Positions 31,905 to 63,854 of a stretch of DNA of 64,000 nucleotides are shown here, piece after piece; position 1 is the first letter of the stretch, and every line of letters begins with the position of its first letter. Both the position numbers and the translations under genes were made by a program. The DNA lies in contig JAKLEA010000002.1 of NCBI GenBank assembly GCA_022711755.1, forward strand, positions 325,214 through 389,213. The letters are read 5' to 3'. This stretch comes from Planctomycetota bacterium. Its GTDB lineage: Bacteria > Planctomycetota > Brocadiia > SM23-32 > JAKLEA01. The notes below the pieces were generated by a model. It did not search any database. It saw only the letters and a list, made by a program, of their open reading frames with translations, and was not told the origin of the DNA.

Positions 31905-31928
31905 ATTCTCGCGCCGGAACGGCGCGTC

Positions 31929-32858
31929 CTATTTCTTCAGAAGCGAAGCCCGGCGGACGGGGGCGTATTCGGCCGCAAATGCCGGGCCATCGTAACTGAC
32001 GCGATCAAGTTCCGGTTCGCACATTGACACCTCGCGCCCGGCGTCGCGTATGCTCAGTTTCGCGGCAAGCAGAAGCTTGACGGACTCGACGATATCCTCC
32101 AGCGCCGCGATGGGCTTCCTGCCCGGCAGAGCCGCGAACATCTTGTCCAGCATCGTCTTGTAAAGCCGGGAGTTGTCCGTCGAGATTGCGCGGTAACCCT
32201 TGTCAGTTGTGACCCCGAGGGAGAATGGCAGCCAGAGGCCGTTGCGCTGGAATGTGACCAGCGCTCCGCAGGAGTGACGGGCGCTGAAAAGCTCAACGGG
32301 GCCGGATGTTCCCAGAAAACGGACGACCTCAAAACCAGGCCCCAGCAGTCCGCCGAGCATTTCTGCAACGTGAATGGCATAGTTGAATTCGTCAGTGCCG
32401 ACAATGCCGTTGACTACGCGGAACTCCGCGCCGCGCTTGTCAACCGGCAAAGCCAGGTAATCATCCACCTCGACCGTGTAGCGCAGGGAGGAAGAGCCGT
32501 AGATGAGCGCCCCCCTGTCGCGCCATTCCAGGAATTTCTTCGCGTCCGCGGTGTTTCCGCAGAGCGGTTTGTCAATGAAGACCGGCACGCCGGACTGCAT
32601 GAAGGGGATCGCGCGGGGCAGGTGCTTGTCCCAGTCCACGCTGTGGATCAGGACGATGTCGACCTTGCCGATCATGTCCTCGGCCTTAACGCATATTTCC
32701 GCGCCATATTTTGCGGCGTAATCGCGGGTGAGTTCGGGGGTCATGACGGTTCCGCCGTCATGGATCGCGGTCACGCGGGCGACTTCGCCGGCGTGAATTA
32801 TGTCCGCAAACGAGCCGGGGTGGGACGTGTCAAGGTCAATCTGTCCGACGCGAATCAT
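31929..32858 (-). CDS. Gfo/Idh/MocA-family NAD(P)-dependent oxidoreductase
   Basis: N-terminus MIRVGQIDLDTSHPGSFADII is a Rossmann Gfo/Idh/MocA signature. Confidence 0.75.
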   Translation of the reverse strand: MIRVGQIDLDTSHPGSFADIIHAGEVARVTAIHDGGTVMTPELTRDYAAKYGAEICVKAEDMIGKVDIVLIHSVDWDKHLPRAIPFMQSGVPVFIDKPLCGNTADAKKFLEWRDRGALIYGSSSLRYTVEVDDYLALPVDKRGAEFRVVNGIVGTDEFNYAIHVAEMLGGLLGPGFEVVRFLGTSGPVELFSARHSCGALVTFQRNGLWLPFSLGVTTDKGYRAISTDNSRLYKTMLDKMFAALPGRKPIAALEDIVESVKLLLAAKLSIRDAGREVSMCEPELDRVSYDGPAFAAEYAPVRRASLLKK

Positions 32859-45770: not shown

Positions 45771-45851
45771 AAGAATAGCACGCGCATGAAGCGCTGCGCA
45801 AGCTCGGCTCTCCATTGGCAATATGCGAGTTTTGGCAGTGAGGAATTTGGT

Positions 45852-49056: not shown

Positions 49057-50679
49057 TCACTTGACGGCGATGTGTCTTTGCTGATTTCCATGCGCTGCCG
49101 AGGCCGCGCCGGGGTTGTGCGAAATCTCGAATCCAATCTTGCCGACGCCTATTCGCCTGACCGCCTCGACCATCGTCCAGGGGGCCAGGCGCTGTCCGTC
49201 AACCGTAGTGCCGTTCAGGCTTCCGCAGTCCTGCACGAAGATCGTGTCCCCGGCGCGGCGCACCGTGCAATGGCAGGAGCTGGTGCCGGCGTCCTCGATG
49301 ACGATCTGGCACGATCCCCTGTCCCGCCCGATGGTGAATTCCTCGCCGTCTCTTATCGGGGCGGAGAACTTCCCGGAGTCGTTGCGGCGGGCGATCAGCG
49401 TGATCGGGTTGGAGAACGCGGCCCCCTCCTCCCCGCGCGCCGCGGGGGGGATGACGGCGTTCCGGTTGAACCAGACGCGGAACGCGCCGCGCTCCCTGGC
49501 CGGGACCGGCGATATCTCGGCGTCCTCGTAGAGGCAGGCCTGTGTCTCAGGTTCGGTCCTGCTGCAACGCCGGGCCTCCTGCCGCTTCCCGTCCGCCCGT
49601 TTATCCGGAATCTGGTGTTTCGCGGACGACCGCTCCTGCTGCTCCTGTGACTCGCGGCGTTCCTTGTTTGGATCGGCGCGAAGGCCGGCGTAAGCCTTCC
49701 TGAGATCATCCAGAAGCTCGTTATATGTCTGATATCGCGATTCCGGCTCGCGGGCTGTCATGCGGCGGATGATTACGTTGGTCAGCGGCGAAACGTCCGG
49801 CGTGAGCATCCTCACGAGGGGAACCGGCTTGCACAGCCGAGCGGCCAGCACCTCCGCGACGCTGCCGGTGAATGGCGGCGCCCCCGTCAGCATGTGAAAG
49901 GCGGTCATGCCCAGGGAGCAGATGTCGGAGCGCGCGTCAAGCTCCCGGTCTCCGCGCACGCGCTCCGGAGAAAGATAGGCCGGAGTTCCGATCATCGTCA
50001 GGCCTTCGTTGAGGGTCGTCGTGTCCTCTGCCGGATCAGGCTCGGCCTGCAACAGTCCGGTCCTGTGAGCCAGAGCGAAGTCGGTCAATTTAACCGCGTG
50101 CTGCCTTGTGAAAAGTATGTTTGATGGTTTAATGTTGCCGTGGGTGATTCCAGAGATGTCTGCGTCGCCCAGCGCGTCAACTGCCGCTATCAGCACGCTT
50201 AATGCGAGCCTTTCACCCAGACGTCCGCGTTTTGCAATGATTTTCTCCATTGAGATGCCGTCCACCAGCTCCATCGCAACGTAATGACACTTCCCTGCGC
50301 GACCGGCGGAGTGGCAGCGGACGATGCCGCAGTGCTTAAGACTTATCGCTTTTTGAGCGCTGAGCGTGAACCGGCGGGAAAAGGCAGTATCGGCAATCGG
50401 GCATAGGTCTATTGTCTTGACCGCCACGGTCTTTCCATCGTCAATCTGCATCGCCTTGTAGATTTTCGTTCCGGGACCGCTGCCGATTTCAGAAATCAAC
50501 TGGTAACCCGGGATTGCAGGGAGCAGTTTGCGTTCAAGGATGGCTTCAATGTCCGGAGTCATGCGGGCGGCGGCGGCCCGGCTCAGGTCAATCCCCACAT
50601 CAAGGGGGAATTCGTTGAAATGCCCAGTCGAAAACGCCGGCGCGCTTCTTTTTCCAGTCTGAGTCAGTTCGCTCTTCAT
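49057..50679 (-). CDS. eSTK-like pseudokinase with C-terminal FHA domain
   Basis: G-loop GSGPGTKIY, VAVK, catalytic loop THGNIKPSNIL (HRD Asp replaced by Gly-Asn), DFA, SPE. FHA at the C-terminus (TIGRD...SSCHC...NGT). RBS GGGGAGAGA before ATG 50679. Confidence 0.7.
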   Translation of the reverse strand: MKSELTQTGKRSAPAFSTGHFNEFPLDVGIDLSRAAAARMTPDIEAILERKLLPAIPGYQLISEIGSGPGTKIYKAMQIDDGKTVAVKTIDLCPIADTAFSRRFTLSAQKAISLKHCGIVRCHSAGRAGKCHYVAMELVDGISMEKIIAKRGRLGERLALSVLIAAVDALGDADISGITHGNIKPSNILFTRQHAVKLTDFALAHRTGLLQAEPDPAEDTTTLNEGLTMIGTPAYLSPERVRGDRELDARSDICSLGMTAFHMLTGAPPFTGSVAEVLAARLCKPVPLVRMLTPDVSPLTNVIIRRMTAREPESRYQTYNELLDDLRKAYAGLRADPNKERRESQEQQERSSAKHQIPDKRADGKRQEARRCSRTEPETQACLYEDAEISPVPARERGAFRVWFNRNAVIPPAARGEEGAAFSNPITLIARRNDSGKFSAPIRDGEEFTIGRDRGSCQIVIEDAGTSSCHCTVRRAGDTIFVQDCGSLNGTTVDGQRLAPWTMVEAVRRIGVGKIGFEISHNPGAASAAHGNQQRHIAVK

Positions 50680-50740: not shown

Positions 50741-50756
50741 ATGCAAAGCTGATGCC
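50741..50756 (-). promoter_or_regulatory. Sigma54-type -24/-12 promoter candidate (cGGCATc-agct-TTGCA)
   Basis: GG/GC spacing canonical. About 45 nt upstream of the pseudokinase-FHA start. Confidence 0.4.
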
Positions 50757-51094
50757 GAAACCGGCTTTCAATAATAAAGACAATATTCTTATATGATGAC
50801 TCTACATAACCTATTTCTAGTCAATGGATTACGACGTCGGAGAAAAATCTTGTCAAGTGGGATGACGGGACAAGATTCAGAATGCAGAATGCGCGCGGAC
50901 ATCCTACCGGTCATTTTGTCCCCCGGCGGGGACTATTCTGCCCGATGCGATGGGGGGGGAAGCGATACCGAACGGTTCGATGGCGGGAGGCTGATTCCGG
51001 ACGGGTAGGAAATGAGCCGGGCCCCGGTCGAGAGGCGAAGCGACGCGGGACCCGGACTCGCGGGGACAACCTTATATTTACGCCTGTCGCGCAG

Positions 51095-52153
51095 TCAGCT
51101 TGTGACGGCGGCTATGCGCGATGCGGAGGACTTGAAGCCTTCAATGCGCCGGGATAACTCCTTCAAGGCGGAGAGCGCCTTCGGATTGCCCGGTTCGCAG
51201 GCCAGGGCGGACTCCAGCGCCTCCATTGCCGCGCAATACCGGCGTTCCATAACCAGTTCGGCGGCCGATTTCAGCAGTTCATCAACGCTTGCGGCGGAGG
51301 TGGCGGCGTCCGCTGCTTCCCGGTCTTGCGACTCGCCGGGTGGAACCGGGGGATTCAGGTATTGTTCAAGTTCCGGAATCCCGCCCGGGGGGGCCGCGGT
51401 GTCGAGCTGCGTGGTTGGCTCACTGAGTTCGGGAAGTCTGGAGTCTGCAGTCGTTTCCTCAATGCCGATTTCTGACTGCGACTCCTCCGGAACATCAACG
51501 CTGAGGTTGATCTTCGCCGGATTTGAGAAGTCCTTGAACTCAACCTCGAAATCTCCGGAGTTCCAGTCAAGCAACTCGACCGCCGCGTCCAGGGGGAGCA
51601 TCCCGTCAAGCTCGGCGTCAATGATCTCTGAGTCGCGCAGGTAAAGCCTGCCGCTTCGATCCTCCCGGCGCAGGCAGATGGCGCAGCTCTGTCCGGAGCG
51701 GCAGATGACCTTGACCAGGCTCGTGGTCGGCAGGTCCTCAAGGCGGCCTCGGAATGCCTCGGAACGCCCGGCCTGAGCCATGGAGCGGTCAATAGTCATC
51801 TTCGCCCGGACGACAAGCTCGCGCGGATCAACCGGCTTGGGGAGATAGTCCGTGCATCCCATTTCCAGACCCTTGAGCCTGTCCTGAAGCGCGGAACGCT
51901 CCGTCAGGAAGAGGAAAGGAATGCCGGCGGTCTCGTCATCAAGCTGAAGCTCTCCGAAGAGCTGAAAGCCGTCCATCTCCGGCATGTTGACATCCGAGAT
52001 GATGAGGTCGGGCTTGACGATTTTCAGCTTTTGCAGCGCGTCTCGCCCGTTGCGCGCCAGTACCGCTCTGAATCCTGAGTTTTCGAAGCTGCGGGACAAC
52101 AGCCGCAGCAGTATCTCGTCGTCGTCAACCAGAAGTATTATTCCCTTTATCAT
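51095..52153 (-). CDS. Response regulator: receiver plus C-terminal domain of unknown function (DUF4388-like?) plus TPR-like tail
   Basis: MIKGIILLVDDDE...DLIISDVNMPEMDG...FLFLTERS receiver. The domain assignment for the C-terminal region is from memory only. AGGAGG RBS. Start overlaps the upstream kinase stop (ATGA). Confidence 0.7.
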   Translation of the reverse strand: MIKGIILLVDDDEILLRLLSRSFENSGFRAVLARNGRDALQKLKIVKPDLIISDVNMPEMDGFQLFGELQLDDETAGIPFLFLTERSALQDRLKGLEMGCTDYLPKPVDPRELVVRAKMTIDRSMAQAGRSEAFRGRLEDLPTTSLVKVICRSGQSCAICLRREDRSGRLYLRDSEIIDAELDGMLPLDAAVELLDWNSGDFEVEFKDFSNPAKINLSVDVPEESQSEIGIEETTADSRLPELSEPTTQLDTAAPPGGIPELEQYLNPPVPPGESQDREAADAATSAASVDELLKSAAELVMERRYCAAMEALESALACEPGNPKALSALKELSRRIEGFKSSASRIAAVTS

Positions 52154-53436
52154 CTCGACGCCTCCTGAAAAGTTGTTGTGGTTTCCTCTTTGAAACAGCG
52201 TTTCCGGATCATGCGCCTGACCGGAAGACCGTCCATCGTCCGGAGTGTGCCCAGGGCGGCCTCGATATCGGTAAGGCATTCGCGCATGTCCGTGAAGCCT
52301 TCCCCCGGATTGGAAGCAGTCATCTTCTTGAGCAGTTCGGCGGTTCGCGGCGTGACGCTGACGCCGAATTCAGAAAGTTTCGGCAGGCCGAGGTGTTCCA
52401 GTTCCCAAAGGACTTTCTTCGGGTCCGGCGCGTAGGGCATTCTGCCTGCCAGCATTGAGAAAAGGAGGATGCCAAGCGCGTGCATGTCGTCCGCAAAGCC
52501 GGGGACATCCAATTCCTTCAGCAGTCGCCGGCTCAGGTATTCCACCCCCGACGCATGGCGCGCCTTCTGCCCCGGAAGAATCCTGCCGGCTGCCTGCAAA
52601 AGGCCGGAGGGCGGGGCTGACCAGTCAATGCTCATGATCCTGCCGGTTACGCCGATCAGGATGTTCTCGGTTTTTATGCCGCCATGCGGCAGGCCGCGCT
52701 TATGCCCTTCCAGAACTCCCAGCGCGACCTGCCTGAGCAACTCCATGGCCGTGCGTTCGGAGAGTTTCCTGCGCCTTCGCAGAAGCACGTCAAGCGTTAT
52801 GCCGTGCTCGTATTCCTCCAGGATCATGACGCAATGCCTTACGCGGGCGAATTGCGTCACCCGCGCCGCGCAGGGATGAGCCATATTCGCATGGACCCTG
52901 TCGGCCTTGTCCAGCGCAAGCTCGACATCCCTCTGATCGGCCAGTCGCCGGACGTCTATCACCTTCAGGCGCCGGGCCACGTTTCCGCCATTGCCGGCGA
53001 CCCTGTAGGACGATCCCAGCGCGCCTTCGCCCAGTTTGTAGTCAACACGGTATTTATGCGTTCCGTCGCCAACCTGCTCCGGATGCTGCTCGATTTTTCC
53101 GGGAGCGCCGGGTGCGTTGGTCATGCTCCCTTCGACAACGTCAGATAGGAAGCGCTGGAAGAACATCGTGCCGTCATCCGGATCAGCGTTGCCGTTTGTC
53201 AGGTTGCCGAACTGCTCGATCGTTGACGCGATCTCCGACCTGCTGACGTAGCCGCGGCGCACCGCGATCGCCACCGGATCGGCGGGGCAGCCCAGGCTGG
53301 TCATGACATCGGCGTCCTTCCTGCATTCGCGGAAATGCTCCGGATCGCAGAGGACCTGGAGGGCCTTCAGTTGCACGGAAGATCGGAATCCGCTGCTTCC
53401 TGACGAACTTCGGATTTTGTTTTTGTCGTCGCTCAT
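52150..53436 (-). CDS. eSTK-like pseudokinase (degenerate catalytic motifs) with N-terminal domain of about 130 aa
   Basis: G-loop GEGALGSSY, RRLKV, catalytic loop PHGGIKTENILI (HRD replaced by HGG), IDW in place of DFG. Start overlaps the stop of the upstream HK (TAATG). Confidence 0.6.
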   Translation of the reverse strand: MSDDKNKIRSSSGSSGFRSSVQLKALQVLCDPEHFRECRKDADVMTSLGCPADPVAIAVRRGYVSRSEIASTIEQFGNLTNGNADPDDGTMFFQRFLSDVVEGSMTNAPGAPGKIEQHPEQVGDGTHKYRVDYKLGEGALGSSYRVAGNGGNVARRLKVIDVRRLADQRDVELALDKADRVHANMAHPCAARVTQFARVRHCVMILEEYEHGITLDVLLRRRRKLSERTAMELLRQVALGVLEGHKRGLPHGGIKTENILIGVTGRIMSIDWSAPPSGLLQAAGRILPGQKARHASGVEYLSRRLLKELDVPGFADDMHALGILLFSMLAGRMPYAPDPKKVLWELEHLGLPKLSEFGVSVTPRTAELLKKMTASNPGEGFTDMRECLTDIEAALGTLRTMDGLPVRRMIRKRCFKEETTTTFQEASR

Positions 53437-56400
53437 TATTTGTCTCCCGATGATGCGTAGATGGGAGGTCTGGATGCGTCAGCCCCAATGACGCCGCAGA
53501 CGGCTCCGAGAAGTTTTTCCGCAATCTGATCAACGTCGTCCGCGCCCGACTTGCAGGCGCGCTCCAGGCCGCCGCCGAGACGCCCTATCTCGGCGTAACC
53601 GAAAGTGCCCGCTGTTCCCTTAAGATCGTGCCCGATTTTCTGAAGGGCCGGCCTGTTCCCGGCGGAAAGCGCCCTGCCCAGGTCAACGGCGTCGCGATTC
53701 AAGCGTCTCAGGTATTCCTCTCTGAGTTCTTCGATGCACGCCTGGAAGCTGTCTTCCTCAGGCTTGTCAATTCCTGTCTCCTGTTCCTGCGTTTTTTGTG
53801 ATTCCGCGAGGGCTTTCCCGCGTTTTATGACAAGATTGCTTATGCAATCCCGCAAGGCCGCCCGATCCAGCGGCTTGGCGAGGTATGCGTCGCATCCGGC
53901 TGCCAGGCATTCCTCCTGATCGCCCTTCATCGCGGCGGCCGTCAGCGCGACTATGGGAAGGTTCCTGAACCTGGCGTCCTCCCTGATGTTGCGGGCGGTC
54001 TGGTATCCGTCCATGACCGGCATGCGCATGTCAAGAAGCACAAGGTCGTAATCGCCCTGGTCAAGGGCGGAGATGCACAGCGCGCCGTTGTCAACAATGT
54101 CGGCCCTGTGTCCCTCCTTCTCCAGCGCCTTGCGAATGAGCTTCTGGTTGGTCGGGTTATCCTCTGCGACGAGCACGCGCAGGCCGTTTCCGGATGCCGG
54201 AGGACAGGCTGCCGCGTCCTTGCCGGCGGCAGCGGGGCGGGCATCTCGCGCAGACTCGCCCGGGATCACCCATCGGCTGCAGATTTCCGCGATCCTGTCG
54301 CGGGGCAGGCCGTTGGCAGCCGCGTAGTCCATCAATTCGGCGGTCAGGCGCTTTGACTCCTCCGGGGTCATTTCCTCCTCTGCATTGACCACGACGCGGA
54401 CGGAGTCCAGCAGATTGCGTTCGGAAAGGTTCTGAATTAGCTTCAGTCCTTCGCTGTGAACGTTGCGCACGGACATCAGCACCGCGCCGGGGCGATAGCC
54501 GCGCTCAATCTCGGTCATCAGGTCGCTTGCCGACGCGAAGTTCCGGTGACCGTTGTGTTTGTCCTCTTCGCGCTCCGGTTCGTTTGAGAGCACGGCCACC
54601 TCGGCAACGGGATTTTCCTTCAGGACCTCAAGCACCCTCCGGCGCAGGACGCGGATGCCGCCGGCCTTTGGGATGCACTCCACCGCGCCGAGCAGTCCGG
54701 CCCTGCGCTGGTCGGCCACCACGGAGCAGACGATGACGGGTATGTCGCTCAGTTCGGGATCGGCCTTCAGGTCGCGCAGGATGTCCCACCCGTTGCGCCC
54801 CGGCAGCAGTATGTCCAGTATGATTGCGCACGGCCTGAGCCTGCGCGCTTCCGCTATCGCCGCGCCGCCGTCGGGGCAGCCGACAACCGAGACGCCGCTT
54901 CGCGCAAAGGCCGAGCGGTAGAGCTTCAGGCAGGTTGCGTCGTCCTCGACCGCCAGGACGACGCCGCGCTCGCCGGCGGGCGCCCTAGCGGATTCCGTGT
55001 TGTGCCGCGCCATGCCCGGGGCATGATCTTCATCCGGCTCTTCCCGCGCCTGAAGCGAGACTCCGGCAGGCAGGCGGAAAGAGAATACGCTTCCTTCTCC
55101 CAGACGGCTTTCGACGCTGATGCAGCCCCCCATGGCCTCGATGGTCCTGCGGCAGATGGCAAGCCCCAGGCCGGTTCCGCCGAATCTGCTGGCGATGGAG
55201 GCGTCGGCCTGGTTGAACGGGTCGAAGATCTTCTCCATTGCTTCCGGGGCTATGCCGATGCCCTGATCCCGCACGGCGAACCTGATAGAATCCCGTCCAG
55301 CATCGTTGGTCTCGACCGAGCAGCTCATGACGATCCTGCCCCGCCGGGTGAACTTGACGGCGTTACCCATCAGGTTGGTAAGAACCTGGCGGATTCGAAG
55401 CGGATCGCCGGCAAGCTCACGCGGAACGTCCGGGGATATCTCGCAGACAAGTTCAAGCCCCTTCTCGGAAGCCGTCGGGACGAAGGTTTTCATCGTTTCC
55501 TGCGCAAGTGTCCACGGATCATAGGGCTTCCTCTCGAAAACCATCGCGCCGGACTCGACCTTGCTCAGGTCAAGTATGTCGTTGATGAGCGCCAGGAGCG
55601 TTTTGCCGCTTGAGCGTATAGTCTCCACGGCGTCTCGCTGGTCGTCGGTCAGGATGTCGTCCATGAGCATGTCGGCAAAGCCCATGATGCCGTTAAGAGG
55701 CGTTCTTATCTCATGGCTCATGTTGGCCAGGAAACGGCTTTTGGTTGAGTTTGCGGCCTCGGCCGCCGCCTTGGCCCTGAGGAGTTCAAGCCTGGCCTTC
55801 GCCTGTTCCGTGACGTCCTCGACCATCTCAATGGCGGCGATGATGTTTCCGGCGGTGTCGGTTATTGGGCTGGAGACGATCTTGTAGTGCCTGATCTCGT
55901 CGCCGTTCGGGGTGTTTGTCGTGGCCTCGTGGAGTTTCCCGTCGGCCAGCGTCAGCGCAGTCGGGCAGTAGGAGCATCGTTCATCGCGGGCCGGACTGTT
56001 GAATGCGCGGTAGCAGGTCGGGCATTCCCGGGCGTCAACGTTCGGGAACCACTTCTGCATCTGCTTGTTCAGCGAGAGTATCCGCATGTCGGCGCTGATG
56101 ACGGCCACCCCGACCCCGATATTGTCAACGACGTTTCGATATTTCTGTTCCGACTCGCGAATGGCTTCTTCAGCCTGCTTTTGAGCGCTTATGTCCCGTA
56201 CGGTAGCCTGCAGAAAGGTCTGGCCGTTCAATTCCACCCTCGTCAGCAGCACGGTGGCGGGGAAAACGCGCCCGTCAAGGCGCATATGCGCCCATTCGAA
56301 GAAATGCGCCCCGTCCCGCATCGCCGTTCCGATCATCTCCGCCGCCTTTTCGGAGGAGGCTCGTCCGTCCGGTTGGAATTCCGGCGACAATTCCCACGGG

Positions 56401-57758
56401 CCTTTCGAGACGAATTCCTCTTCGTCTGCGGCGCCGAAAAGCTCCACGCAAGACGGATTTCCTGAAGCGAATCTCCATGACGGCGGGGCGAGGGTCATGA
56501 TCGCGTCGCGCGAGGACTCAAATAGCGTCTTGTAGAGTTTTCTGCTTTCATTCAACGCATCTTCAGCTTGTTTTCGATTTCGGATGTCAACAAAGCTTTC
56601 AATCAGGCACTCCCGATCCCCGAGATTCGTCTTTACCACGCTCTTGATTACGGGAATCTCCCGACTCTGCGCGTCGAGGATTACTCGTTCGGAGTTCTCA
56701 ACCGTCCTGCCGAGATCGGTGATCGGGCACTTGCCGCATTCGGCGGGGCATATGTGCTTATGGCATATCTGGCCGACTATTTCGCTCTTTGGCGCTCCTA
56801 TCATCCCGATTGCGACGGGATTGACCTCCAGTACCACATGTGTCTCGGCGTCAACAATTGCAATGCCGGTAGGCAACGATTCCAGGATGCCGTTGAGCCT
56901 TTGGTTGTATTCAATAAGTTTGGTTTCCGCTTCGCGGCGTCGGGTGATGTCTTCACCGGAGGCCAGCACCGCTTTGATCCGGCCGTCCGCATCGCGGACG
57001 GCGGTATTGTGCCAGAATATGAGTTTCTCCTCTCCTTGCCGCGTAAGAATGACGTTCTCGCATTCCTCCACCCATCCCGAATCGCCATTCAGGATGCCTT
57101 TGAAGATTTCTCTGACTTCCTCCCTCACGCGCATGGGAAGACAGGTCTCAAACCAGTCTTTGCCGATCAGTTCGGCGGCGGCATAACCCATAAGCTCGTG
57201 TCCCTTCCGGTTGATCATTGCGATCTTCCCGTCAAGGTCCAGGGCCAGGAGTATCACCCCGGCAACATCAAGGTATCCTGCGGAGACGTCGTGTTGTTCC
57301 TTGAGCGCCTGTTCCGCCGTTATCGTCTCCGTAATGTCCTCGATGACGTGAAGCCAAAGGTTGCCGCATGGGGCGTTCTTGTTCGTTTTTGAGCACTTGA
57401 CGCGGAAGAATCTGCCGGGGAGCAACTCCTGACAGGCGACAGAAAAGTCCTCCCCGTTCGCCATGCTGCGGCACGCGTCGCAAAGTTCCGGCGGCCTGTC
57501 CGAGCAGTGGACGACCTCGTAGCATTTACGTCCGATCACGTCCTGCGGTTTACGAGATATCATTCCGCAAAAGCCCTGGTTGCAATCCAGGATGTTCTGC
57601 CCCGGATCCATGAGGAACGCCGGGAAGGGAAGCCCCTCCAACGTCAGCCTGCCCGCCGCCTTGACGCTTTGATTTTCCACTTTCTCGCCTCTTGGGTTGT
57701 CTGTTTTATCAGGGCGCGCCCCGCGCGCGCCCTGTTGAGCGTTCGACTTGATATGCAA
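53436..57758 (-). CDS. Cytoplasmic hybrid histidine kinase (Cys-motif PAS, about 6 PAS domains, HisKA, HATPase, REC, REC, Hpt)
   Basis: HisKA LANMSHEIRTPLNGIMGF. HATPase GTGLGLAICRRTIEAMGGCISVES. Two receivers (VVLAVEDD...; RVLVAEDNPTNQ...LLDMRMPVMDG). Hpt HDLKGTAGTFGYAEIG. True start probably downstream of 57758 (GTG 57680 or ATG 57611), because a sigma54 element lies at 57763-57777. Confidence 0.85.
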   Translation of the reverse strand: MHIKSNAQQGARGARPDKTDNPRGEKVENQSVKAAGRLTLEGLPFPAFLMDPGQNILDCNQGFCGMISRKPQDVIGRKCYEVVHCSDRPPELCDACRSMANGEDFSVACQELLPGRFFRVKCSKTNKNAPCGNLWLHVIEDITETITAEQALKEQHDVSAGYLDVAGVILLALDLDGKIAMINRKGHELMGYAAAELIGKDWFETCLPMRVREEVREIFKGILNGDSGWVEECENVILTRQGEEKLIFWHNTAVRDADGRIKAVLASGEDITRRREAETKLIEYNQRLNGILESLPTGIAIVDAETHVVLEVNPVAIGMIGAPKSEIVGQICHKHICPAECGKCPITDLGRTVENSERVILDAQSREIPVIKSVVKTNLGDRECLIESFVDIRNRKQAEDALNESRKLYKTLFESSRDAIMTLAPPSWRFASGNPSCVELFGAADEEEFVSKGPWELSPEFQPDGRASSEKAAEMIGTAMRDGAHFFEWAHMRLDGRVFPATVLLTRVELNGQTFLQATVRDISAQKQAEEAIRESEQKYRNVVDNIGVGVAVISADMRILSLNKQMQKWFPNVDARECPTCYRAFNSPARDERCSYCPTALTLADGKLHEATTNTPNGDEIRHYKIVSSPITDTAGNIIAAIEMVEDVTEQAKARLELLRAKAAAEAANSTKSRFLANMSHEIRTPLNGIMGFADMLMDDILTDDQRDAVETIRSSGKTLLALINDILDLSKVESGAMVFERKPYDPWTLAQETMKTFVPTASEKGLELVCEISPDVPRELAGDPLRIRQVLTNLMGNAVKFTRRGRIVMSCSVETNDAGRDSIRFAVRDQGIGIAPEAMEKIFDPFNQADASIASRFGGTGLGLAICRRTIEAMGGCISVESRLGEGSVFSFRLPAGVSLQAREEPDEDHAPGMARHNTESARAPAGERGVVLAVEDDATCLKLYRSAFARSGVSVVGCPDGGAAIAEARRLRPCAIILDILLPGRNGWDILRDLKADPELSDIPVIVCSVVADQRRAGLLGAVECIPKAGGIRVLRRRVLEVLKENPVAEVAVLSNEPEREEDKHNGHRNFASASDLMTEIERGYRPGAVLMSVRNVHSEGLKLIQNLSERNLLDSVRVVVNAEEEMTPEESKRLTAELMDYAAANGLPRDRIAEICSRWVIPGESARDARPAAAGKDAAACPPASGNGLRVLVAEDNPTNQKLIRKALEKEGHRADIVDNGALCISALDQGDYDLVLLDMRMPVMDGYQTARNIREDARFRNLPIVALTAAAMKGDQEECLAAGCDAYLAKPLDRAALRDCISNLVIKRGKALAESQKTQEQETGIDKPEEDSFQACIEELREEYLRRLNRDAVDLGRALSAGNRPALQKIGHDLKGTAGTFGYAEIGRLGGGLERACKSGADDVDQIAEKLLGAVCGVIGADASRPPIYASSGDK
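57707..57731 (-). promoter_or_regulatory. Perfect 10-bp GC-rich inverted repeat with 5-nt loop (CAGGGCGCGC-cccgc-GCGCGCCCTG) in the predicted 5' leader of the Hpt-HK operon
   Basis: Seen directly in the sequence. Lies +20 to +45 relative to the TSS predicted from the sigma54 element. Confidence 0.5.
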
Positions 57759-57762
57759 ATAC

Positions 57763-57777
57763 GCAAGAGACGTGCCA
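57763..57777 (-). promoter_or_regulatory. Sigma54-type -24/-12 promoter (TGGCACG-tctc-TTGCG)
   Basis: Matches the TGGCACG-N4-TTGCW consensus on the minus strand. Sits upstream of the HK-pseudokinase-REC operon. Confidence 0.55.
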
Positions 57778-58084
57778 CGCGCTCGGATTTCCCGGGGATT
57801 AAAGGATATGAGATTGAGACATGTTTCTTCTTTGATCTGGAAGCGGAATATTTGCGGGGATTGCCTTTCATGCGCTCTCAGCAGTGTGTAAGGATGTAAA
57901 TGATAAAAGAGAAGAGTCCGGCCAGTATTGCCGCTCCCGGGGACAACGTGTCCGCCGATGAGAAAGGGGCGGCAAGGCGTTGGGGGTTTAAATGGAAGAC
58001 GCGCCGGAGTTCGGCGCGTCTTCGTTCGGGAAGTCGGCGTCCCGGGTGCAGGGACGCCGGTCTGGGTGGCGGGGACGCCCGAAC

Positions 58085-59974
58085 TCAGGCCTCGGTTATG
58101 AGCCTGAAACTGGTCTTGCCGATCTTCAATTCTGTTGTCATCCAGCCAACCTCGCCGGCTTCGAGCTTCCTGCCGTCCACGCTGGTGCCGTTGCGGCTGT
58201 TGCAGTCCTGAACGACGACGTTGTTGCCGCTGCGCATGACCTTACAGTGGGAAATGCTGACCTGCGGGTCTTCCAGGACGACGTGGCTGAAGTCGGCGGA
58301 GCGTCCGAACGTGAGTTCATCCCCGTCGTTGAGTATGATGCCCACCTTGTCGCGCCCGTCCGTGACCAGAACCATCGGCGATGAGAAGGGGCCTGACCTT
58401 TCGGTCATGACCTTCGAAATCGAGTCGGAATCCCTCACTGGGAACACGTGCGCTCCGTCGCCTTTGACGGCAATGTCCGAACCTTCCGCATCGGGCTTGC
58501 GAGGATTGATGACCGTCGGAACCTCCAAAAAGCGGCAGATATCATCGGGGGTCTTCTTGACGGTCGGGCTGGAATCCGGGGATTTGCTTTCATTGCCGCC
58601 CTCGTATTCCTTCAACAGCCCAAGCACGCGGGAGATGCTTTCTTCGCCGGGGCCGCAGGAAACGCTGCCTTCGGATTTCGCGGAGCCTTGAATGGCTTCC
58701 GCAAGTTCGGGGGCGTCGTCAGCCTCGGCCACCTGCGCGCCGACGGCCTCCGGCTCGAATTCCTTCAGGAACGGCAGGACTTTGGAGAGACTTTCGTCGG
58801 TTCCGAGGCTTCCGTGCGACGTCTCGCGGGCGGCCGGCGCGGATTTCGGGGCGGAGGGGAGCGATGAAATCGCAGGCTGATTCGGGCCTTTCGCCTGTTC
58901 CGCAGAGTCCTTGCGCGCTGGCTGATAACTGCCGGTCTTGGCCAGCCGCGCGGACAGGGCGTGAAATTCCCGCAGCAGTTCCTTCGGACTCTGGTAGCGC
59001 GCCTCCGGAGCCTTGGCGCTCATCTTCATGATGACCCGCTCCGTCATGGGCGAAATCTCAGGAACAAAGTTCCGCAGGGGGGGCAGGGGGTAGAGCAGAT
59101 GCGCTGACATGACTTCGATGGCCTTGCCCTTGAACGGGATTTTGCCAGTCAGTACCTTGAACAGCGAGATGCCCAGCGAGTAAATGTCCGAGCGCACGTC
59201 CACCTCCTGCTCCCCCCTTACCTGCTCCGGAGACATGAAAGCAGGGGTGCCGACGCGCATGTTGGCCTGGGTTATCGCCGTGCTCTGCTGCGCATTCCCG
59301 TCCTTGCCCCATACGAACTGCTTTGCCAGGCCCAGGTCAACCAGCTTTACGTGGCCGTCGAAGGTGATCAGGATGTTGTGGGGCTTTATGTCCCGATGGG
59401 CGATGCCGTGACTCCAGAGATGGTCCATCGCATGGAGCGTCTCGATCATGATGTCCACTGCCGCCGCTTCCTGGAGGCGTCCCTGATTCTCGATGAGGTC
59501 GTTGAGGGAGTAGCCGTGGACGAATTCCATAATGGCGTAGAGCATGTCCCCGTCCTGTCCGTATCCGAGGATACGGGCGACGTTCGGGTGATCCAGGCCG
59601 GCCGCCATCCTCGCGGTCTTCAAAAAGCGCCGGGGGGTATTTGGATTCATCTCGACGTCCACGTTCAAGACCTTGATTGCCACCATCGCCCCAGTCTTTG
59701 CGTCTGATGCCTTATAGACCGTGCCCTGCGAACCTTGACCGAGGACTTCAATGATCTTGTAGCCGAGTTTTTCGAGTTTCTCGGGGTTTGACGTCTGGCG
59801 ATATGCCTGGAGGGCCGGATTGTCAGTGCTTTCCAGGATGATTGTTCCGGACTCTTCATCAATGCCGTTGAAGATGGATGGTTTGTCGCCGCCCGCCGGA
59901 GGAGTAGGAGTCTTTCCCGCTCCGGAAATTACCGGCTGATTTGTGATGCGTGCGTTTGCCATGTTGGTCTGCAT
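58085..59974 (-). CDS. Ser/Thr protein kinase with C-terminal FHA domain
   Basis: G-loop GQGSQGTVY, AIKV, catalytic loop HRDIKPHNIL, DLG, SPE. FHA at the C-terminus (TFGRS...SISHC...NGT). RBS AAGGAAG. Confidence 0.85.
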   Translation of the reverse strand: MQTNMANARITNQPVISGAGKTPTPPAGGDKPSIFNGIDEESGTIILESTDNPALQAYRQTSNPEKLEKLGYKIIEVLGQGSQGTVYKASDAKTGAMVAIKVLNVDVEMNPNTPRRFLKTARMAAGLDHPNVARILGYGQDGDMLYAIMEFVHGYSLNDLIENQGRLQEAAAVDIMIETLHAMDHLWSHGIAHRDIKPHNILITFDGHVKLVDLGLAKQFVWGKDGNAQQSTAITQANMRVGTPAFMSPEQVRGEQEVDVRSDIYSLGISLFKVLTGKIPFKGKAIEVMSAHLLYPLPPLRNFVPEISPMTERVIMKMSAKAPEARYQSPKELLREFHALSARLAKTGSYQPARKDSAEQAKGPNQPAISSLPSAPKSAPAARETSHGSLGTDESLSKVLPFLKEFEPEAVGAQVAEADDAPELAEAIQGSAKSEGSVSCGPGEESISRVLGLLKEYEGGNESKSPDSSPTVKKTPDDICRFLEVPTVINPRKPDAEGSDIAVKGDGAHVFPVRDSDSISKVMTERSGPFSSPMVLVTDGRDKVGIILNDGDELTFGRSADFSHVVLEDPQVSISHCKVMRSGNNVVVQDCNSRNGTSVDGRKLEAGEVGWMTTELKIGKTSFRLITEA

Positions 59975-60040
59975 CTTCCTTACCCCTGTTCCTGTCCGCC
60001 ATGAACGAATGAGAATGAATGAACTCTGCGGGAATGGAAC

Positions 60041-60055
60041 GCAACTGCCGTGCCA
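60041..60055 (-). promoter_or_regulatory. Sigma54-type -24/-12 promoter (TGGCACG-gcag-TTGCG)
   Basis: Consensus match about 65 nt upstream of the STK-FHA start. The leader carries four UUCAU repeats (60001-60024). Confidence 0.55.
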
Positions 60056-60317
60056 GTTTGCGCTTTAAGGTATAAACATTCGGTGGAATTGCCGGGATGT
60101 TTATCGCAGACACATCATGCAGGAAAGGGAAGTCTGATGGATGGGCGATGTTTGATAAAAACTGCGCCGTCCGCAGGGCCGCAGGAGGGGGATCTATCGG
60201 TCATTCTGTCCGGTGCGGTAGCGGAATTGGCCGCGTGGTCATGAATCGGCAAGGCGCATTCCGCTTGTCAGCCATTCAGTAGCGAGCCGGTTTGTTCGAC
60301 AGATACCCGACCCGAAG

Positions 60318-60629
60318 GTGCGGGCTTGGTTCCGTGATGCCATATCGGCCATGTTCGATGACGTCAACAAGGCCGAGTCCCAGAGGCGCGGGATGCTCAA
60401 CAAGCGCCGCTCGGAGTTGATCAACATTCAGGACCGCCTGCTCAACGCTTTCCTGGGCGGGACAATCGAGGAGTCCGTCTACACCGCAAAGTCAAACGAC
60501 CTGAGAAATCAGTTGGAGGAGGTTGAGCGAAATCTTGAAGAGAACGGCGACAACAGAATCAGTAAGGAGAACGGCAGGCTGGCGTTGACGGTATTCGACT
60601 TCAGCCAGAATCTGGGGGGCATATGGTAA
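60318..60629 (+). pseudogene. Possible remnant of a large serine recombinase C-terminal coiled-coil region (or unrelated small ORF)
   Basis: RLLNAFLGGTIEESVYTAKSNDLRNQLEEVERNLEE resembles the L-x-x-[YF]-L-x-G-x-I-x-x-E-x-[YF]...coiled-coil segment of large serine recombinases. No catalytic domain lies upstream. GTG start. 350 bp from the 3' end of tRNA-Met. Confidence 0.2.
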
Positions 60630-61054: not shown

Positions 61055-61388
61055 GGGCAGTCCACTTCAACAATTACCAACGCTTACACAAGCGCCTCGC
61101 TCTCCGCCGATGAAGACAAACGCTGAAAATACGACCGGCGAATATCAACGTTTGACGGAACGGGCTGAGCCGGATGTTCAGATCATCAACTGCCGGAAGT
61201 ATAATGCCCAAAGGCAATCCTTTCAAGCATTTGCATACCATTTCTATGCCAACGGTTGCCAGACTGAATTTATGTATGAAGATCCGGCAAGCTGACATTC
61301 TGACAGGATAGCTCGCTATCATCCCTCAATATTGCGAATAATGTCCCGGCAACTGCCTTTCTTCCTGCGGGAAGTATTATATCAATGC

Positions 61389-63854
61389 TCAGTCATTCCG
61401 GGTCAGGAGGATGCGAACCTTCCGTGGCGCATCGCATGGACTGTCAAGCGGGATATTGCAGGTGATATTCCACTTTCCAAGGTCAGCGTCGTAGCATGCC
61501 TGCCAGAAGTCATTTCCATGAACCGATTGATCCACGCGTTCAGCTTTCCCCTCCGCTGAGCATAGGATGGTATGATTCCTGTAACTGTCCAGTCCGGTAA
61601 AGGTGATGGGGACATAACCGGCCCCGCCGGAAACAAGAAGTTCGGCGCAGTTCCCTTCTGTCGCGATCTCCATGGGATAATGCCGGAGTATGCGCCCACG
61701 GAGCATTTCGATTTCAAGACTGTTGGAGGCCGCCTCACGATGAACCAATTTCCAGGTATCTGCGCCGTCAATGAGCGCGCGGCGCAGATTCTCGTTCGGA
61801 CCATAATATTCATCGCCTGACATCGGGATGATGACCATCTCAACCTCTGCCTCAATGAAATCCCCCGGAAGCAATTCAGCAACGCCGGGCGGGGGCGATA
61901 GCTCAACATTCATGCTTGGCGGCCCGTTTTCAGTGCCGAAACACGAGGCGAATGGATATGGGATATCCTTGCCGCCCAATACGGCTTTCCAGCGTCTGAC
62001 AATCAACCCCCGGTTGGCCCATGCTCCGCCCTTGACGTCCCGACTGATTGCGCGGTGGAGCGAGAACCATGGGGCTTCACCATCGCATGGGATTCCTGTC
62101 CGGTGATAATGTCTGCCCCCTCTCTGGCACGCCCATTCCTCAATCATGCCGCCTGCATTGCCCCGGGCGATCAGGTCAAACTGATGGTCGTTGTAGTTGT
62201 CAGCGCCAAGCTGGTAAAAAGCAATCCGGGTGAACCGCGTCGGCTTCATCACGTCGTAGCGAATCTTGTGAAATGCGCGGTTTATATCATCGCAACGCGG
62301 CGTTGATGCTTCAATACGGGCGGCGATGTTACCGTCCGCTGAGATTCCAGCGTAGATGACTTTCGTGAAATTCGGGCCATACGAGAGATAGGCCGTTTTC
62401 ACGCGCGCGAGGAACTGCTTCTCGCCCTTCGCGTCGAAGTAGACGAGGAAGTCGCCGCCGCCGACGTTATTGGTCCAGCCCCATTTCACCTTTTCCGCGT
62501 TCATCTGCCAGACCATGAGCGGACGCACATCGTCAATCATGGCCCTGTTGAGATTGACGTCGGGATCGTAGGTGATGGACTCGCCCCAACTTCCGATGGC
62601 AGCCTGGTCCCAGAGCTGGTTCATTCCCCAGCCGATGAGGCAGAGTTGCGCGTGAGACGCCGCCGGGACCCCCCCCCAGAGGGCGTATGTGACGTTGAAT
62701 TCAAGCGTCGTTCTGGATTTAGGCGGCAGGCGAAGTTGTGTGAAACCATGGAACCATGGGCCTTCATAGAGGAATCGCTTGTCGGGCTGGCGATGCCAGT
62801 TCTTGGAAATTTGCACTGGAATCCCTGTCGGATTGCCCTCATTGTCGCGCATCATCGGCGTCATGCCGGTTACGCCGGGGAACGGGTAATCCCGCGCGAA
62901 CAGCAGCCGCGCCGTGGCTGGATGCTCTTCGGCGTTTGACACGGTCAGCCTGATTCGATCAAGATGATCCGGGTCCTCACTGACAGACCAGTTCTCCTTC
63001 GGCAACTCGATGCGATGCCAGCCGCGTTTCGCGTCATGCTTTGTATCAAGCGTTTCGTGATTCCCCCTTATGTCAACAGCTTCGACCGTTGCCGGCTCGT
63101 CCGAGCCGGAGACGGCGCAGGGAAGCAACTTCATCCCGCATGCATATTGCAGTCCTGATTTCCAGTCGGTGGATTCTCCCCTGCCGGTTGAGTCTGAGAT
63201 GTCGGCGTTGAGGGCGCATAGCCCTATCTCGATCCGCGACTGGGGAAGGTCTTTATGCGGTGTGATCTCAAGTATTACCGATGCCTGATCGGGCCATGCG
63301 ACAATCTCCAGCCGGCCTTCGGCGGGCAGAAGGTTCCCGTTGTCGTCCTCAAATTCGAGCCGGCGGATGTCCGCTCGTTGGACGAATCGTCCGCTCTCGA
63401 TTATGCGGACCGGATAATCCAGCCAGTCGTTCTGCCCGACTGCTCCCCGCCTGCAGCGATACCTCGCGCCGCCGGCATGAACATCAAGCGCCAGTTCCGA
63501 CCTCGGCATGTTGAAGATTGTGGAATTGTCTTCGGCAGCCGCTTCTTCATAAGACTTGGGCGCGCGAATGATCCCGAGGTTGAGCAACTCAACCCTCTCA
63601 ACGTCCAGCGCCAGACCGTAATGTCCCGTCTGGATGCAGAGGACCTTTCGGGCGTCCGGCGAGCGTCCGCGCCATCCGTATGCCCACCACATGAGCGAAT
63701 AATCACGAGCGCCAGGCATGCACTCGCCTGGCGAGAGTTCTTTCAGATGCATGGAAGATATCCCAATGCCGTCCTGCGCAGGCAGAATGGATGCGAAGGC
63801 GGCAAGAAACATGGCAACAGCAGCGATGCGCGCAGTTGTCAGCGCCTGCCCCAT
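61389..63854 (-). CDS. Large secreted protein of unknown function (signal peptide; possible glycan-active enzyme)
   Basis: N-terminal signal MGQALTTARIAAVAMFLAAFASILPAQD. 821 aa with no recognisable catalytic motifs by eye. Confidence 0.5.
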   Translation of the reverse strand: MGQALTTARIAAVAMFLAAFASILPAQDGIGISSMHLKELSPGECMPGARDYSLMWWAYGWRGRSPDARKVLCIQTGHYGLALDVERVELLNLGIIRAPKSYEEAAAEDNSTIFNMPRSELALDVHAGGARYRCRRGAVGQNDWLDYPVRIIESGRFVQRADIRRLEFEDDNGNLLPAEGRLEIVAWPDQASVILEITPHKDLPQSRIEIGLCALNADISDSTGRGESTDWKSGLQYACGMKLLPCAVSGSDEPATVEAVDIRGNHETLDTKHDAKRGWHRIELPKENWSVSEDPDHLDRIRLTVSNAEEHPATARLLFARDYPFPGVTGMTPMMRDNEGNPTGIPVQISKNWHRQPDKRFLYEGPWFHGFTQLRLPPKSRTTLEFNVTYALWGGVPAASHAQLCLIGWGMNQLWDQAAIGSWGESITYDPDVNLNRAMIDDVRPLMVWQMNAEKVKWGWTNNVGGGDFLVYFDAKGEKQFLARVKTAYLSYGPNFTKVIYAGISADGNIAARIEASTPRCDDINRAFHKIRYDVMKPTRFTRIAFYQLGADNYNDHQFDLIARGNAGGMIEEWACQRGGRHYHRTGIPCDGEAPWFSLHRAISRDVKGGAWANRGLIVRRWKAVLGGKDIPYPFASCFGTENGPPSMNVELSPPPGVAELLPGDFIEAEVEMVIIPMSGDEYYGPNENLRRALIDGADTWKLVHREAASNSLEIEMLRGRILRHYPMEIATEGNCAELLVSGGAGYVPITFTGLDSYRNHTILCSAEGKAERVDQSVHGNDFWQACYDADLGKWNITCNIPLDSPCDAPRKVRILLTRND

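Follow-up and report, generated by a model that had tools for sequence, protein, structure and literature searches.

The enteric NtrB/NtrC system, with the glnAp2 promoter and the autoregulated glnALG operon, is the textbook paradigm for transcriptional activation by sigma-54 enhancer-binding proteins (EBPs), and the enhancer (UAS) recognized by NtrC has the form TGCACC-N5-GGTGCA. Binding at two or more neighbouring sites, on which oligomers assemble, is common among EBPs but not universal. In Myxococcus xanthus, EBP cascades are linked to Ser/Thr kinases, and some EBPs carry an FHA domain and are targets of kinases. In the Desulfovibrio vulgaris sigma-54 regulome, UAS motifs differ from one EBP to the next and include at least one palindrome (Kazakov et al. 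2015, PMC4641369); Desulfovibrio EBP genes usually lie beside sigma-54 targets, and some reside inside sigma-54-dependent operons (PMC4641369). For Planctomycetota, a survey predicts sigma-54 promoters upstream of genes for histidine kinases, CheY-like receivers and NtrC-family EBPs, suggests EBP autoregulation, and refers to previous work on the sigma-54 regulon of Pirellula sp. strain 1 (PMC12316311).

Here we describe a locus in a “Candidatus Brocadiia” MAG (Planctomycetota). The readable part of the genome comprises ~74 kb, namely a 64-kb stretch of DNA (the window) and neighbouring contig DNA, from which we read motifs, their geometry and statistics, and protein domain content directly. 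Our best reading is that 13 signalling genes in four operons are controlled by the EBP encoded at 43241–44623, with a fifth unit possible. We consider it probable that these operons form a local sigma-54 regulon whose units share an enhancer, and that this EBP activates all four of them, its own included.

Predicted sigma-54 promoters precede four signalling units

An earlier sequence-only reading of this DNA had listed four -24/-12 motifs, each of which was borne out by direct inspection. Three are on the minus strand, at 60040–60055 (P_60055; TGGCACGGCAGTTGCG), 57762–57777 (P_57777; TGGCACGTCTCTTGCG) and 50742–50757 (P_50756; cGGCATCAGCTTTGCA / CGGCATCAGCTTTGCA), and one is on the plus strand at 34578–34593 (P_34578; TGGCATGATGATTGCG). 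Placing transcription starts ~11–12 nt downstream of the -12 GC gives predicted sites at ~60029, ~57751, ~50731 and ~34604, respectively. The GG and GC doublets are exactly 10 nt apart at these promoters, the spacing by which the class is recognized. Two copies match TGGCAC-N5-TTGC exactly, one carries a C-to-T change at -21, and one begins cGGCAT. The exact motif occurs twice in the window versus 0.15 occurrences expected, a count reached in 1 of 100 shuffles, and the relaxed form GGCAY-N5-TTGC occurs four times in 64 kb versus 1.9 expected, all four being the sites listed earlier. Every one of the four is intergenic and faces the next gene, and non-coding DNA makes up ~10% of the window. The distances from the -12 C to the start codon are 48, 64, 67 and 83 nt; the earlier range of 45–70 nt is slightly too narrow for P_57777.

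When the window is ranked by a generic sigma-54 score, its top three matches are all among these four promoters (P_60055 scores 12 of 13). P_50756 is a weaker predicted promoter: its score of 8.5 is no higher than that of several matches in coding sequence, making it weak when taken alone, and this promoter, the weakest of the four, is the one needed to close the feedback loop proposed below. A scan of these intergenic regions for sigma-70-like promoters found none, which is weak evidence because planctomycete housekeeping promoters are poorly defined. The genome likely encodes rpoN, given an EBP with an intact GAFTGA loop and the sigma-54 reports for the phylum (PMC12316311).

Downstream of these promoters we infer four operons; of the four, possibly five, neighbouring gene groups at the locus, at least four encode cytoplasmic signalling proteins. 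Unit (i), on the minus strand, is a single gene for STK-FHA (58085–59974), a Ser/Thr kinase with intact HRD and DLG motifs and a C-terminal FHA domain. Unit (ii), on the same strand, encodes a hybrid histidine kinase with four PAS, HisKA, HATPase_c, two REC and Hpt domains (53436–57680), a pseudokinase with HGG for HRD and DWS for DFG (52150–53436), and a response regulator combining REC and PatA_N (DUF4388) domains (51095–52153); we set the start of the hybrid kinase at GTG 57680 because the gene call at TTG 57758 falls within the -12 element. Unit (iii), also on the minus strand, runs from a pseudokinase-FHA protein with HGN for HRD and DFA for DFG (49057–50679), a paralogue of STK-FHA with 37% identity, through a 56-aa ORF with one hydrophobic segment (48874–49044), a WD40 propeller plus Roc GTPase with about 500 additional residues that match no family (45852–48836) and a HisKA protein (44679–45821), to the NtrC-family EBP as its last gene (43241–44623), with gaps of 12–55 nt between genes. 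Unit (iv), on the plus strand, starts with a PAS-GAF histidine kinase (34640–36775; in-frame start ATG 34640), whose stop codon overlaps the start of a stand-alone REC gene (36772–37221) as ATGA, and continues with two hybrid histidine kinases, one with REC, two PAS, HisKA, HATPase_c and REC domains (37288–40152) and one with PAS, GAF, PAS, HisKA, HATPase_c and REC domains (40202–43186). The sequence-only reading had noted the plus-strand motif before a PAS kinase; the motif is present, and the unit behind it is a predicted four-gene operon that includes the receiver gene, which had gone unmentioned. The domain assignments of that reading hold on checking, except that in its ‘NtrB-like’ histidine kinase the H-box is present while the ATPase domain is degenerate.

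Database searches found no orthologous locus, and the other contigs that carry this one are 100% identical to it. Matches to STK-FHA comprise one identical MAG copy and then proteins with 37% identity over the kinase domain, the relatives of the central pseudokinase (52150–53436) are distant kinases only, and the best relatives of the EBP, from many phyla, are 42–47% identical, with the nearest proteins in the databases at about 46%. Support for the promoters and for the dyad described below therefore comes from repetition of the composite within the locus and not from conservation.

The EBP and the adjacent HisKA protein

The protein encoded at 43241–44623 has every sequence feature for sigma-54 activation. 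Its Pfam matches are to REC (E-value 5.5e-32), the sigma-54-interacting AAA+ domain (1.4e-64) and HTH_8 (2e-12), and its motifs include YEKGAFTGA, a GETGTGKE Walker A sequence and the receiver series DD...VVVLDLSMPG...LTAH...EKPF, in which the acidic pocket, phospho-acceptor Asp, Thr and Lys are all kept. A six-frame scan for GAFTGA and Walker A motifs identified this protein as the only EBP in the window, in agreement with the earlier description of a single EBP at the end of the array, and no other DNA-binding regulator was recognized among the window ORFs scanned. The EBP falls below every NCBIfam cut-off for named EBP equivalogs (NtrC, AtoC, ZraR, NtrX, the PEP-CTERM regulator and others), the best match being to AtoC at 437.8 bits versus a cut-off of 714.

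The neighbouring HisKA protein (44679–45821) retains an H-box, AHEMRNHL, and matches HisKA with an E-value of 2e-8, but yields no HATPase_c match even at an E-value of 0.1. When aligned to ZraS, its N-box Asn is replaced by His and the ATP-lid/G2 segment is absent. The protein thus lacks a normal ATP-binding domain, which makes it a doubtful phosphodonor for the EBP and counts against the model proposed below.

A shared dyad lies upstream of every promoter

The sequence-only reading had proposed a search for shared enhancer-like inverted repeats 100–200 bp upstream of the promoters. That search revealed one 13-bp dyad, GGACA-N3-TG(A/T)CC, 144–175 nt upstream of the -24 GG at each of the four promoters, always in the same orientation with the GGACA half distal. 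For P_60055, the putative UAS is GGACAGAATGACC (60199–60211, minus strand), centred 151 nt upstream of the -24 GG; for P_57777, it is the perfect and hence strandless palindrome GGACACGTTGTCC (57941–57953), centred at 171 nt, with a weak second site, GGCAATACTGGCC, 21 bp to its promoter side; for P_50756, it is GGACAAAATGACC (50909–50921, minus strand), centred at 159 nt; and for P_34578, it is GGACACTCTGACC (34391–34403, plus strand), centred at 182 nt. The P_34578 site was left out when the motif was defined, and its dyad therefore provides independent confirmation (chance about 2e-4). On the minus-strand side of this last dyad there is no GG-N10-GC element, and nothing else points to a divergent promoter under its control. 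The dyad-promoter spacers are AT-rich, with a GC content of 0.34–0.51 versus 0.60, and no convincing IHF sites were found in them. Each promoter has one clear dyad; a search for secondary dyads that might support cooperative binding returned three weak sites with 3 mismatches, the one 21 bp from the P_57777 palindrome among them, versus about 4 expected by chance.

The window contains five dyad sites (six strand matches) versus 0.11 matches expected, and none of 100 shuffles reaches that count. In an exhaustive, unbiased search, the dyad ranked first among shared 13-mers and also among shared 16-mers, with the 16-mer score reached in none of 60 shuffles. In a control set of 1.26 Mb of unrelated EBP loci, we found nine dyads and 58 promoter-like motifs but no composite of the two. 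Two perfect dyads occur in coding sequence without a promoter; one such orphan lies within dnaX in an extra 8 kb of contig, which has no composite. The genes behind P_60055 and P_50756 encode paralogues with no more than 37% identity; even so, the two promoters agree at 16 of 18 bases in the stretch that includes the dyad, and the remaining upstream DNA does not align. We considered a repeat or mobile element as the source of the shared motifs and rejected it, as alignment of the upstream regions is confined to the two motifs. The pairing of dyad and sigma-54 promoter has the classical enhancer layout.

We also looked for the dyad beyond this locus. Near-dyads are not enriched around 80 EBP homologue genes (0.169 versus 0.161 per kb). 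Perfect palindromes near EBP genes of the Desulfovibrio/Desulfarculales type were rejected as UASs; they occupy equivalent positions within the kinase ORFs upstream, have no promoter near them and look like a coding feature. A search of the literature for EBP sites of the form GGACA/TGTCC gave incidental primer matches only, the Desulfovibrio motifs being published as figure logos alone.

A weaker candidate for a fifth composite spans 31974–32148 on the minus strand, where the dyad GGACAAGATGTTC (32148–32136) is followed after 147 nt by TGGCCCGGCATTTGCG (31989–31974), a TGGCCC variant of the promoter motif. This candidate promoter lies 70 nt upstream of the ATG at 31904, and the composite falls within the 3' part of a Gfo/Idh/MocA ORF. 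Downstream on the same strand are genes for a 565-aa protein with five TM-like segments (30207–31904) and a 379-aa BNR-like protein (28968–30107), and this pair may form a fifth unit of the regulon.

Discussion

With the dyad present at all four promoters, a common sigma-54/EBP regulon is by far the best account of the locus, which supports the earlier proposal that the units share sigma-54 control. Because the sole EBP in the window is encoded at the end of one composite-bearing unit, a single autoregulated NtrC-family activator is the best reading of the regulator; we infer the tie between this EBP and the dyad from their co-localisation. We propose that, once its receiver is phosphorylated, the EBP would bind GGACA-N3-TG(A/T)CC as a dimer or higher oligomer, at the one copy that each unit has about 175–205 bp upstream of its predicted start site. 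The AT-rich spacer would then loop, allowing the AAA+ domain to touch sigma-54 holoenzyme waiting in a closed complex at the -24/-12 element, and ATP hydrolysis would open the promoter. In this way, STK-FHA would be switched on jointly with the hybrid HisKA-Hpt kinase, pseudokinase and REC-PatA_N protein of unit (ii), with the pseudokinase-FHA protein, small ORF, WD40-Roc protein, HisKA protein and EBP of unit (iii), and, from the opposite strand, with the PAS-GAF kinase, REC protein and two hybrid kinases of unit (iv). As the genes for the activator and its partner end unit (iii), a positive feedback loop would result. The sequence-only reading had also suggested positive autoregulation, which fits the position of the EBP gene and the short gaps to the genes before it.

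Other regulators could act at these dyads. For example, the sigma-54 regulon could be real but governed by an EBP encoded elsewhere, with the local EBP controlling other targets or only some of the units. The genome probably encodes further EBPs: the readable part is ~74 kb, and Planctomycetota usually have several EBPs (PMC12316311). The degenerate partner kinase also fits such an arrangement, and Desulfovibrio offers a precedent in which two EBP genes lie near one sigma-54 promoter that only one of their products bound (PMC4641369). Nevertheless, location of the EBP gene inside the cluster, at the end of a composite-bearing unit, failure to recognize another regulator in 64 kb, and the usual rule that EBPs are encoded beside their targets (PMC4641369) make control by a distant EBP unlikely. 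Alternatively, the sigma-54 promoters could be real and the dyad could be the site of a repressor, co-activator or nucleoid protein, with the EBP acting from other, unrecognized sites or from solution. A single 13-bp dyad per promoter instead of a tandem pair, two orphan dyads in coding DNA and the lack of a matching EBP motif in the literature searched would all fit such a regulator. Constant orientation, one-to-one pairing with promoters and centres 151–182 nt upstream of the -24 GG, by contrast, characterize a UAS (PMC4641369); the window yielded no further DNA-binding protein, and the unbiased search gave no better motif common to the upstream regions. We therefore regard a non-EBP regulator as quite improbable.

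Finally, the motifs could be chance matches or remnants of duplicated DNA, with the genes transcribed from unrecognized promoters of the sigma-70 type. The coding-like score of P_50756 and the weakness of a negative sigma-70 scan in planctomycetes lend this idea some substance. However, four of four motifs lie between genes, and each has a rare dyad at a fixed distance and in a fixed orientation, a composite absent from the 1.26-Mb control; the upstream regions, unlike copies of one repeat, have nothing else in common. Coincidence or common descent is thus a highly implausible source of the pattern, and a local regulon under the EBP at 43241–44623 is the reading we carry forward.

More broadly, nearly all-signalling regulons give a cell the means to rewire its sensory network on command. 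In a more speculative version of the model, which we consider doubtful, this one EBP would install an alternative cytoplasmic network, and the degenerate HisKA protein would serve as a ChpT/Spo0B-like phosphotransferase carrying phosphate from the regulon's hybrid kinases to the EBP, creating a self-amplifying switch. If so, the switch would encompass 13 signalling proteins (two Ser/Thr pseudokinases, a Roc-WD40 GTPase, a REC-PatA_N regulator and four sensor kinases among them) and could underlie a developmental-type, possibly bistable change of lifestyle in this uncultured, anaerobic planctomycete; it would be an analogue of the myxobacterial EBP cascades, though independent of them. The bacterial roles of pseudokinases and Roc GTPases are poorly understood, and their predicted co-regulation here suggests that they function together. 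The analysis also provides a concrete predicted regulon for an uncultured planctomycete of the class Brocadiia, with a 13-bp predicted activator site, four or five predicted promoters and start sites and a candidate activator, and the dyad-promoter pair can be used to find further members across the full MAG.

In this reading, the locus is a new, clean example of a well-known bacterial control circuit and leaves the general picture of the sigma-54 mechanism unchanged. As in enteric NtrC, a REC-AAA+-HTH (Fis-type) activator goes with a putative dyad UAS situated 100 bp or more upstream of TGGCAC-N5-TTGC, and, as in glnALG, the activator gene is distal in an operon that its product would itself activate. 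Unlike NtrC, the EBP described here falls below the thresholds for named equivalogs, its putative UAS is GGACA-N3-TGWCC with one clear site per promoter, not a tandem array, and its proposed targets, at least 13 genes, encode signalling proteins instead of functions in nitrogen assimilation; the partner HisKA protein differs from NtrB in its degenerate ATPase domain. The logic by which we link activator, UAS and promoter is the same as in the D. vulgaris regulome work (PMC4641369), where motifs are backed by conservation at orthologous loci and by DAP-chip or EMSA, whereas here they are backed by repetition of a composite within one locus.

Predictions that sigma-54 controls genes for kinases, receivers and EBPs already exist for the Planctomycetota, and the 13-bp dyad at each promoter is what is new here. 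The phylum survey, in the part drawn on, places sigma-54 promoters before the same kinds of genes as we find, using promoter matrices alone and summarising by COG category; a UAS, a multi-operon local regulon and the class Brocadiia are absent from that part of its account, in which ‘protein kinase’ has no occurrences (PMC12316311). The same text, which reports enrichment of sigma-54 promoters at histidine-kinase, CheY-like and NtrC-family genes, makes doubtful the view of the sequence-only reading that such arrays are uncommon outside myxobacteria (PMC12316311). As in Myxococcus xanthus, predicted sigma-54/EBP control at this locus is combined with eukaryote-like kinases, with FHA domains and with numerous sensor kinases of the cytoplasm. 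In contrast to Myxococcus, the EBP has a REC input and no FHA domain, and the FHA domains reside instead on a kinase and a pseudokinase that are proposed targets of the EBP.

Sigma-54 promoters and a shared upstream dyad

Direct inspection of the sequence finds the four −24/−12 elements of the sequence-only reading present as described: P_60055 (60055..60040, minus strand, TGGCACGGCAGTTGCG), P_57777 (57777..57762, minus, TGGCACGTCTCTTGCG), P_50756 (50757..50742, minus, cGGCATCAGCTTTGCA) and P_34578 (34578-34593, plus, TGGCATGATGATTGCG). Exact TGGCAC-N5-TTGC occurs twice in 64 kb (0.15 expected), and the four matches to the looser GGCAY-N5-TTGC (1.9 expected) are these same sites. With a generic sigma-54 score, the window's top three hits are three of the four; the 50757 site is weak on its own, as its score ties with several coding-sequence hits. 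The window is ~90% coding, and all four sites are intergenic and directed towards the next gene, with 67, 83, 64 and 48 nt between the −12 C and the start codon.

Reading the three minus-strand upstream regions, we recognized a common dyad, GGACA-N3-TG(A/T)CC, which has five sites in the whole window against 0.11 expected matches, a count reached in none of 100 shuffles. Four of the five lie upstream of the four promoters, 144, 152, 164 and 175 nt from the −24 GG, always with the perfect GGACA half distal, a positive outcome at every promoter for the suggested search for shared inverted repeats. Because the plus-strand dyad (34391-34403) was left out when the motif was defined, it provides an independent test; its chance of falling at the expected place is ~2e-4 by our own estimate from the dyad rate. 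Moreover, when the four upstream regions were searched exhaustively and without bias, this same dyad came out as both the best shared 13-mer and the best shared 16-mer, with scores matched in 3/60 and 0/60 shuffles, respectively. As an empirical control, 1.26 Mb of unrelated EBP-encoding loci, collected for another purpose, contained 9 dyads and 58 promoter-like motifs but no composite of the two.

The genes that follow P_60055 and P_50756 are paralogous, with proteins only 37% identical. Their upstream DNA keeps 16/18 bases around the dyad, together with the −24/−12 element, and does not align outside these two regions. All four intergenic spacers are rich in AT (GC 0.34-0.51 versus 0.60) and carry A/T tracts; a search of them gave no convincing IHF site. 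Between the dyad and P_60055 lies a terminator-like hairpin (60162-60176, minus; CTGCGGACGGCGCAG then TTTTTATC), which could shield the promoter from transcription arriving from upstream or form part of a bendable region. Two perfect dyads are orphans, without a sigma-54-like element at the usual distance: one on the minus strand at 32834-32846, within the first codons of a Gfo/Idh/MocA ORF, and one on the plus strand within the 3′ part of dnaX, just beyond the window (19596-19608 of L204, the locus on the same contig that extends further). These orphans may be chance matches or distant/auxiliary sites.

Genes of the four units

Pfam bears out the domain calls of the sequence-only reading, apart from one catalytic domain discussed below. 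On the minus strand, these are STK-FHA (58085-59974), a hybrid PAS kinase with Hpt (53436-57680), a kinase-like protein with HGG/DWS for HRD/DFG (52150-53436), REC-PatA_N (51095-52153), a kinase-like-FHA protein with HGN/DFA at these positions (49057-50679), a 56-aa ORF, WD40 + Roc (45852-48836), a HisKA protein (44679-45821) and a REC-AAA+-HTH_8 EBP (43241-44623). By these motif replacements, both kinase-like proteins are pseudokinases. From P_50756, the predicted unit (iii) comprises five genes separated by 12-55 nt, the EBP gene being the last. One gene call starts the hybrid kinase at TTG 57758, which falls within the −12 element, making GTG 57680 the likely start. Its predicted 5′ leader contains a hairpin at 57703-57727 (minus) whose 10-bp stem consists entirely of G-C pairs (CAGGGCGCGC/GCGCGCCCUG); the leader has an MFE of −25.3 kcal/mol (z −2.0). 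The 994-aa WD40-Roc protein, with an N-terminal WD40 propeller and a Roc/Ras-type GTPase domain, resembles ROCO proteins but differs in that no COR domain was detected; its ~500 C-terminal residues have no Pfam match.

The plus-strand promoter copy and the PAS kinase behind it were called correctly, but the kinase is the first gene of what appears to be a tight four-gene operon: a PAS-GAF kinase from ATG 34640, a stand-alone receiver (36772-37221) overlapping its stop codon, and two hybrid kinases. No signalling protein of the units has a TM-like segment. An 83-aa ORF (34065-34316, minus) adjoins the dyad of P_34578 and, in a different reading frame, overlaps the 33031-34206 ORF at its start. 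Its match to the receiver-domain profile is confined to the C-terminal half (positions 55-110), and it appears to be what remains of a truncated gene for a response regulator or hybrid kinase.

The EBP is, as claimed, the only one in the window; its receiver residues, Walker A, GAFTGA and HTH_8 are all present. It falls under every NCBIfam equivalog cut-off (best AtoC, 438 bits versus 714) and is therefore a generic representative of the NtrC family, without a named orthologue. The adjoining ‘NtrB-like’ protein retains the phospho-acceptor His box, but Pfam detects no HATPase_c domain; the protein has another residue in place of the N-box Asn and lacks the ATP-lid/G2 segment. Judged by these residues it looks unable to bind ATP, and it may act as a phosphotransferase or phosphatase instead of a kinase. 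One idea is that, in the former role, it could pass phosphate from the regulon's hybrid kinases to the EBP.

A candidate fifth unit and the surrounding genes

A further sigma-54-like element (31989..31974, minus, TGGCCCGGCATTTGCG), with the fourth-best score in the window and 14/16 identity to the P_60055 element, is followed after 70 nt by the ATG of a gene for a 565-aa protein with 5 TM-like segments. A one-mismatch dyad (GGACAAGATGTTC) is found 147 nt upstream of it, and the orphan dyad at 32834-32846 lies 845 nt upstream in the same Gfo/Idh/MocA ORF. Relaxing the criteria in this way gives 5 composites in the window, where the control DNA predicts 0.25 per 64 kb. Both elements, however, fall inside the Gfo/Idh/MocA ORF, with ordinary coding DNA (GC 0.63) as the spacer between them; we therefore give this unit a roughly even chance of belonging to the regulon. 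Its leader has a 7-bp GC hairpin (31910-31926).

Some 10 kb from the cluster, a 1662-aa hybrid kinase (19703-24691, plus; dCache, about six PAS, GAF, HisKA, HATPase_c and REC) has neither dyad nor sigma-54 motif upstream, and the regulon is therefore not simply every kinase of the neighbourhood. Upstream of the cluster are an 821-aa protein with a signal-peptide-like N-terminus (61389-63854, minus) and small ORFs at 60351-60629 and 61110-61295 (both plus), none of which has a Pfam or NCBIfam family hit. A PEP-CTERM-motif protein and a type II secretion pseudopilin-like protein, encoded at the window's low end (2853-4509, minus), have, as far as seen, no relation to the cluster.

Discussion

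Neighbouring units that each have a dyad 100 bp or more upstream of a −24/−12 promoter, with an NtrC-family EBP gene in the cluster, show the classical sigma-54 enhancer arrangement, for which background and co-localization statistics are available (PMC4641369). The repeated layout and the EBP gene within the cluster support the proposal of a common sigma-54/EBP regulon. In the most likely mechanism, phosphorylated EBP would bind the dyads, the AT-rich spacer would loop, the AAA+ ring would touch the sigma-54 holoenzyme via GAFTGA, and ATP hydrolysis would open the promoters. Because unit (iii) reaches the EBP gene, the circuit would amplify itself. What the sequence shows directly is the motifs with their geometry and statistics and the domains of the proteins; the pairing of this EBP with the dyad, the extent of the operons and the feedback are inferred from these.

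Other explanations of the dyad deserve consideration. The joint statistics practically exclude chance matches or inert remnants. Ownership by a different EBP, encoded elsewhere in the genome, is unlikely though the strongest of the competing accounts; the cluster encodes an EBP of its own. Less probable still is a regulator that is not an EBP at all, a reading to be set against the repeated spacing of dyad and sigma-54 promoter.

By the annotation of an identical protein, the organism belongs to a ‘Candidatus Brocadiia bacterium’ MAG (phylum Planctomycetota). No orthologous locus was found in protein or genome collections, other contigs carrying the locus are identical, and rpoN was not seen within ~74 kb of contig sequence. 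At EBP homologues elsewhere, the dyad does not occur as a UAS. In Desulfovibrio/Desulfarculales-type loci, the dyad recurs inside the histidine-kinase ORF preceding the EBP homologue gene, at a distance of ~700-1200 nt from this gene. There, GGACA-N3-TGTCC is a perfect palindrome in three comparison loci (L020, L022 and L033) and has one mismatch in two (L008 and L028); its position is the same in the closely related pair L008/L020, and these palindromes are probably a conserved coding feature.

An EBP site of the GGACA/TGTCC type did not turn up in our literature search. For Planctomycetota, one study predicts enrichment of sigma-54 promoters in front of genes for histidine kinases, CheY-like proteins and NtrC-family regulators, as well as EBP autoregulation (PMC12316311). 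These predictions weaken the suggestion that such sigma-54-controlled arrays are uncommon outside myxobacteria. This kind of system is well known; what is new is the specific UAS, the compact regulon of four to five units and its content, in which at least 13 genes encode signalling proteins, including the two pseudokinases and the Roc-WD40 protein. FHA-EBPs occur in myxobacteria. By contrast, the input domain of the present EBP is a receiver, and the FHA proteins would be its targets.
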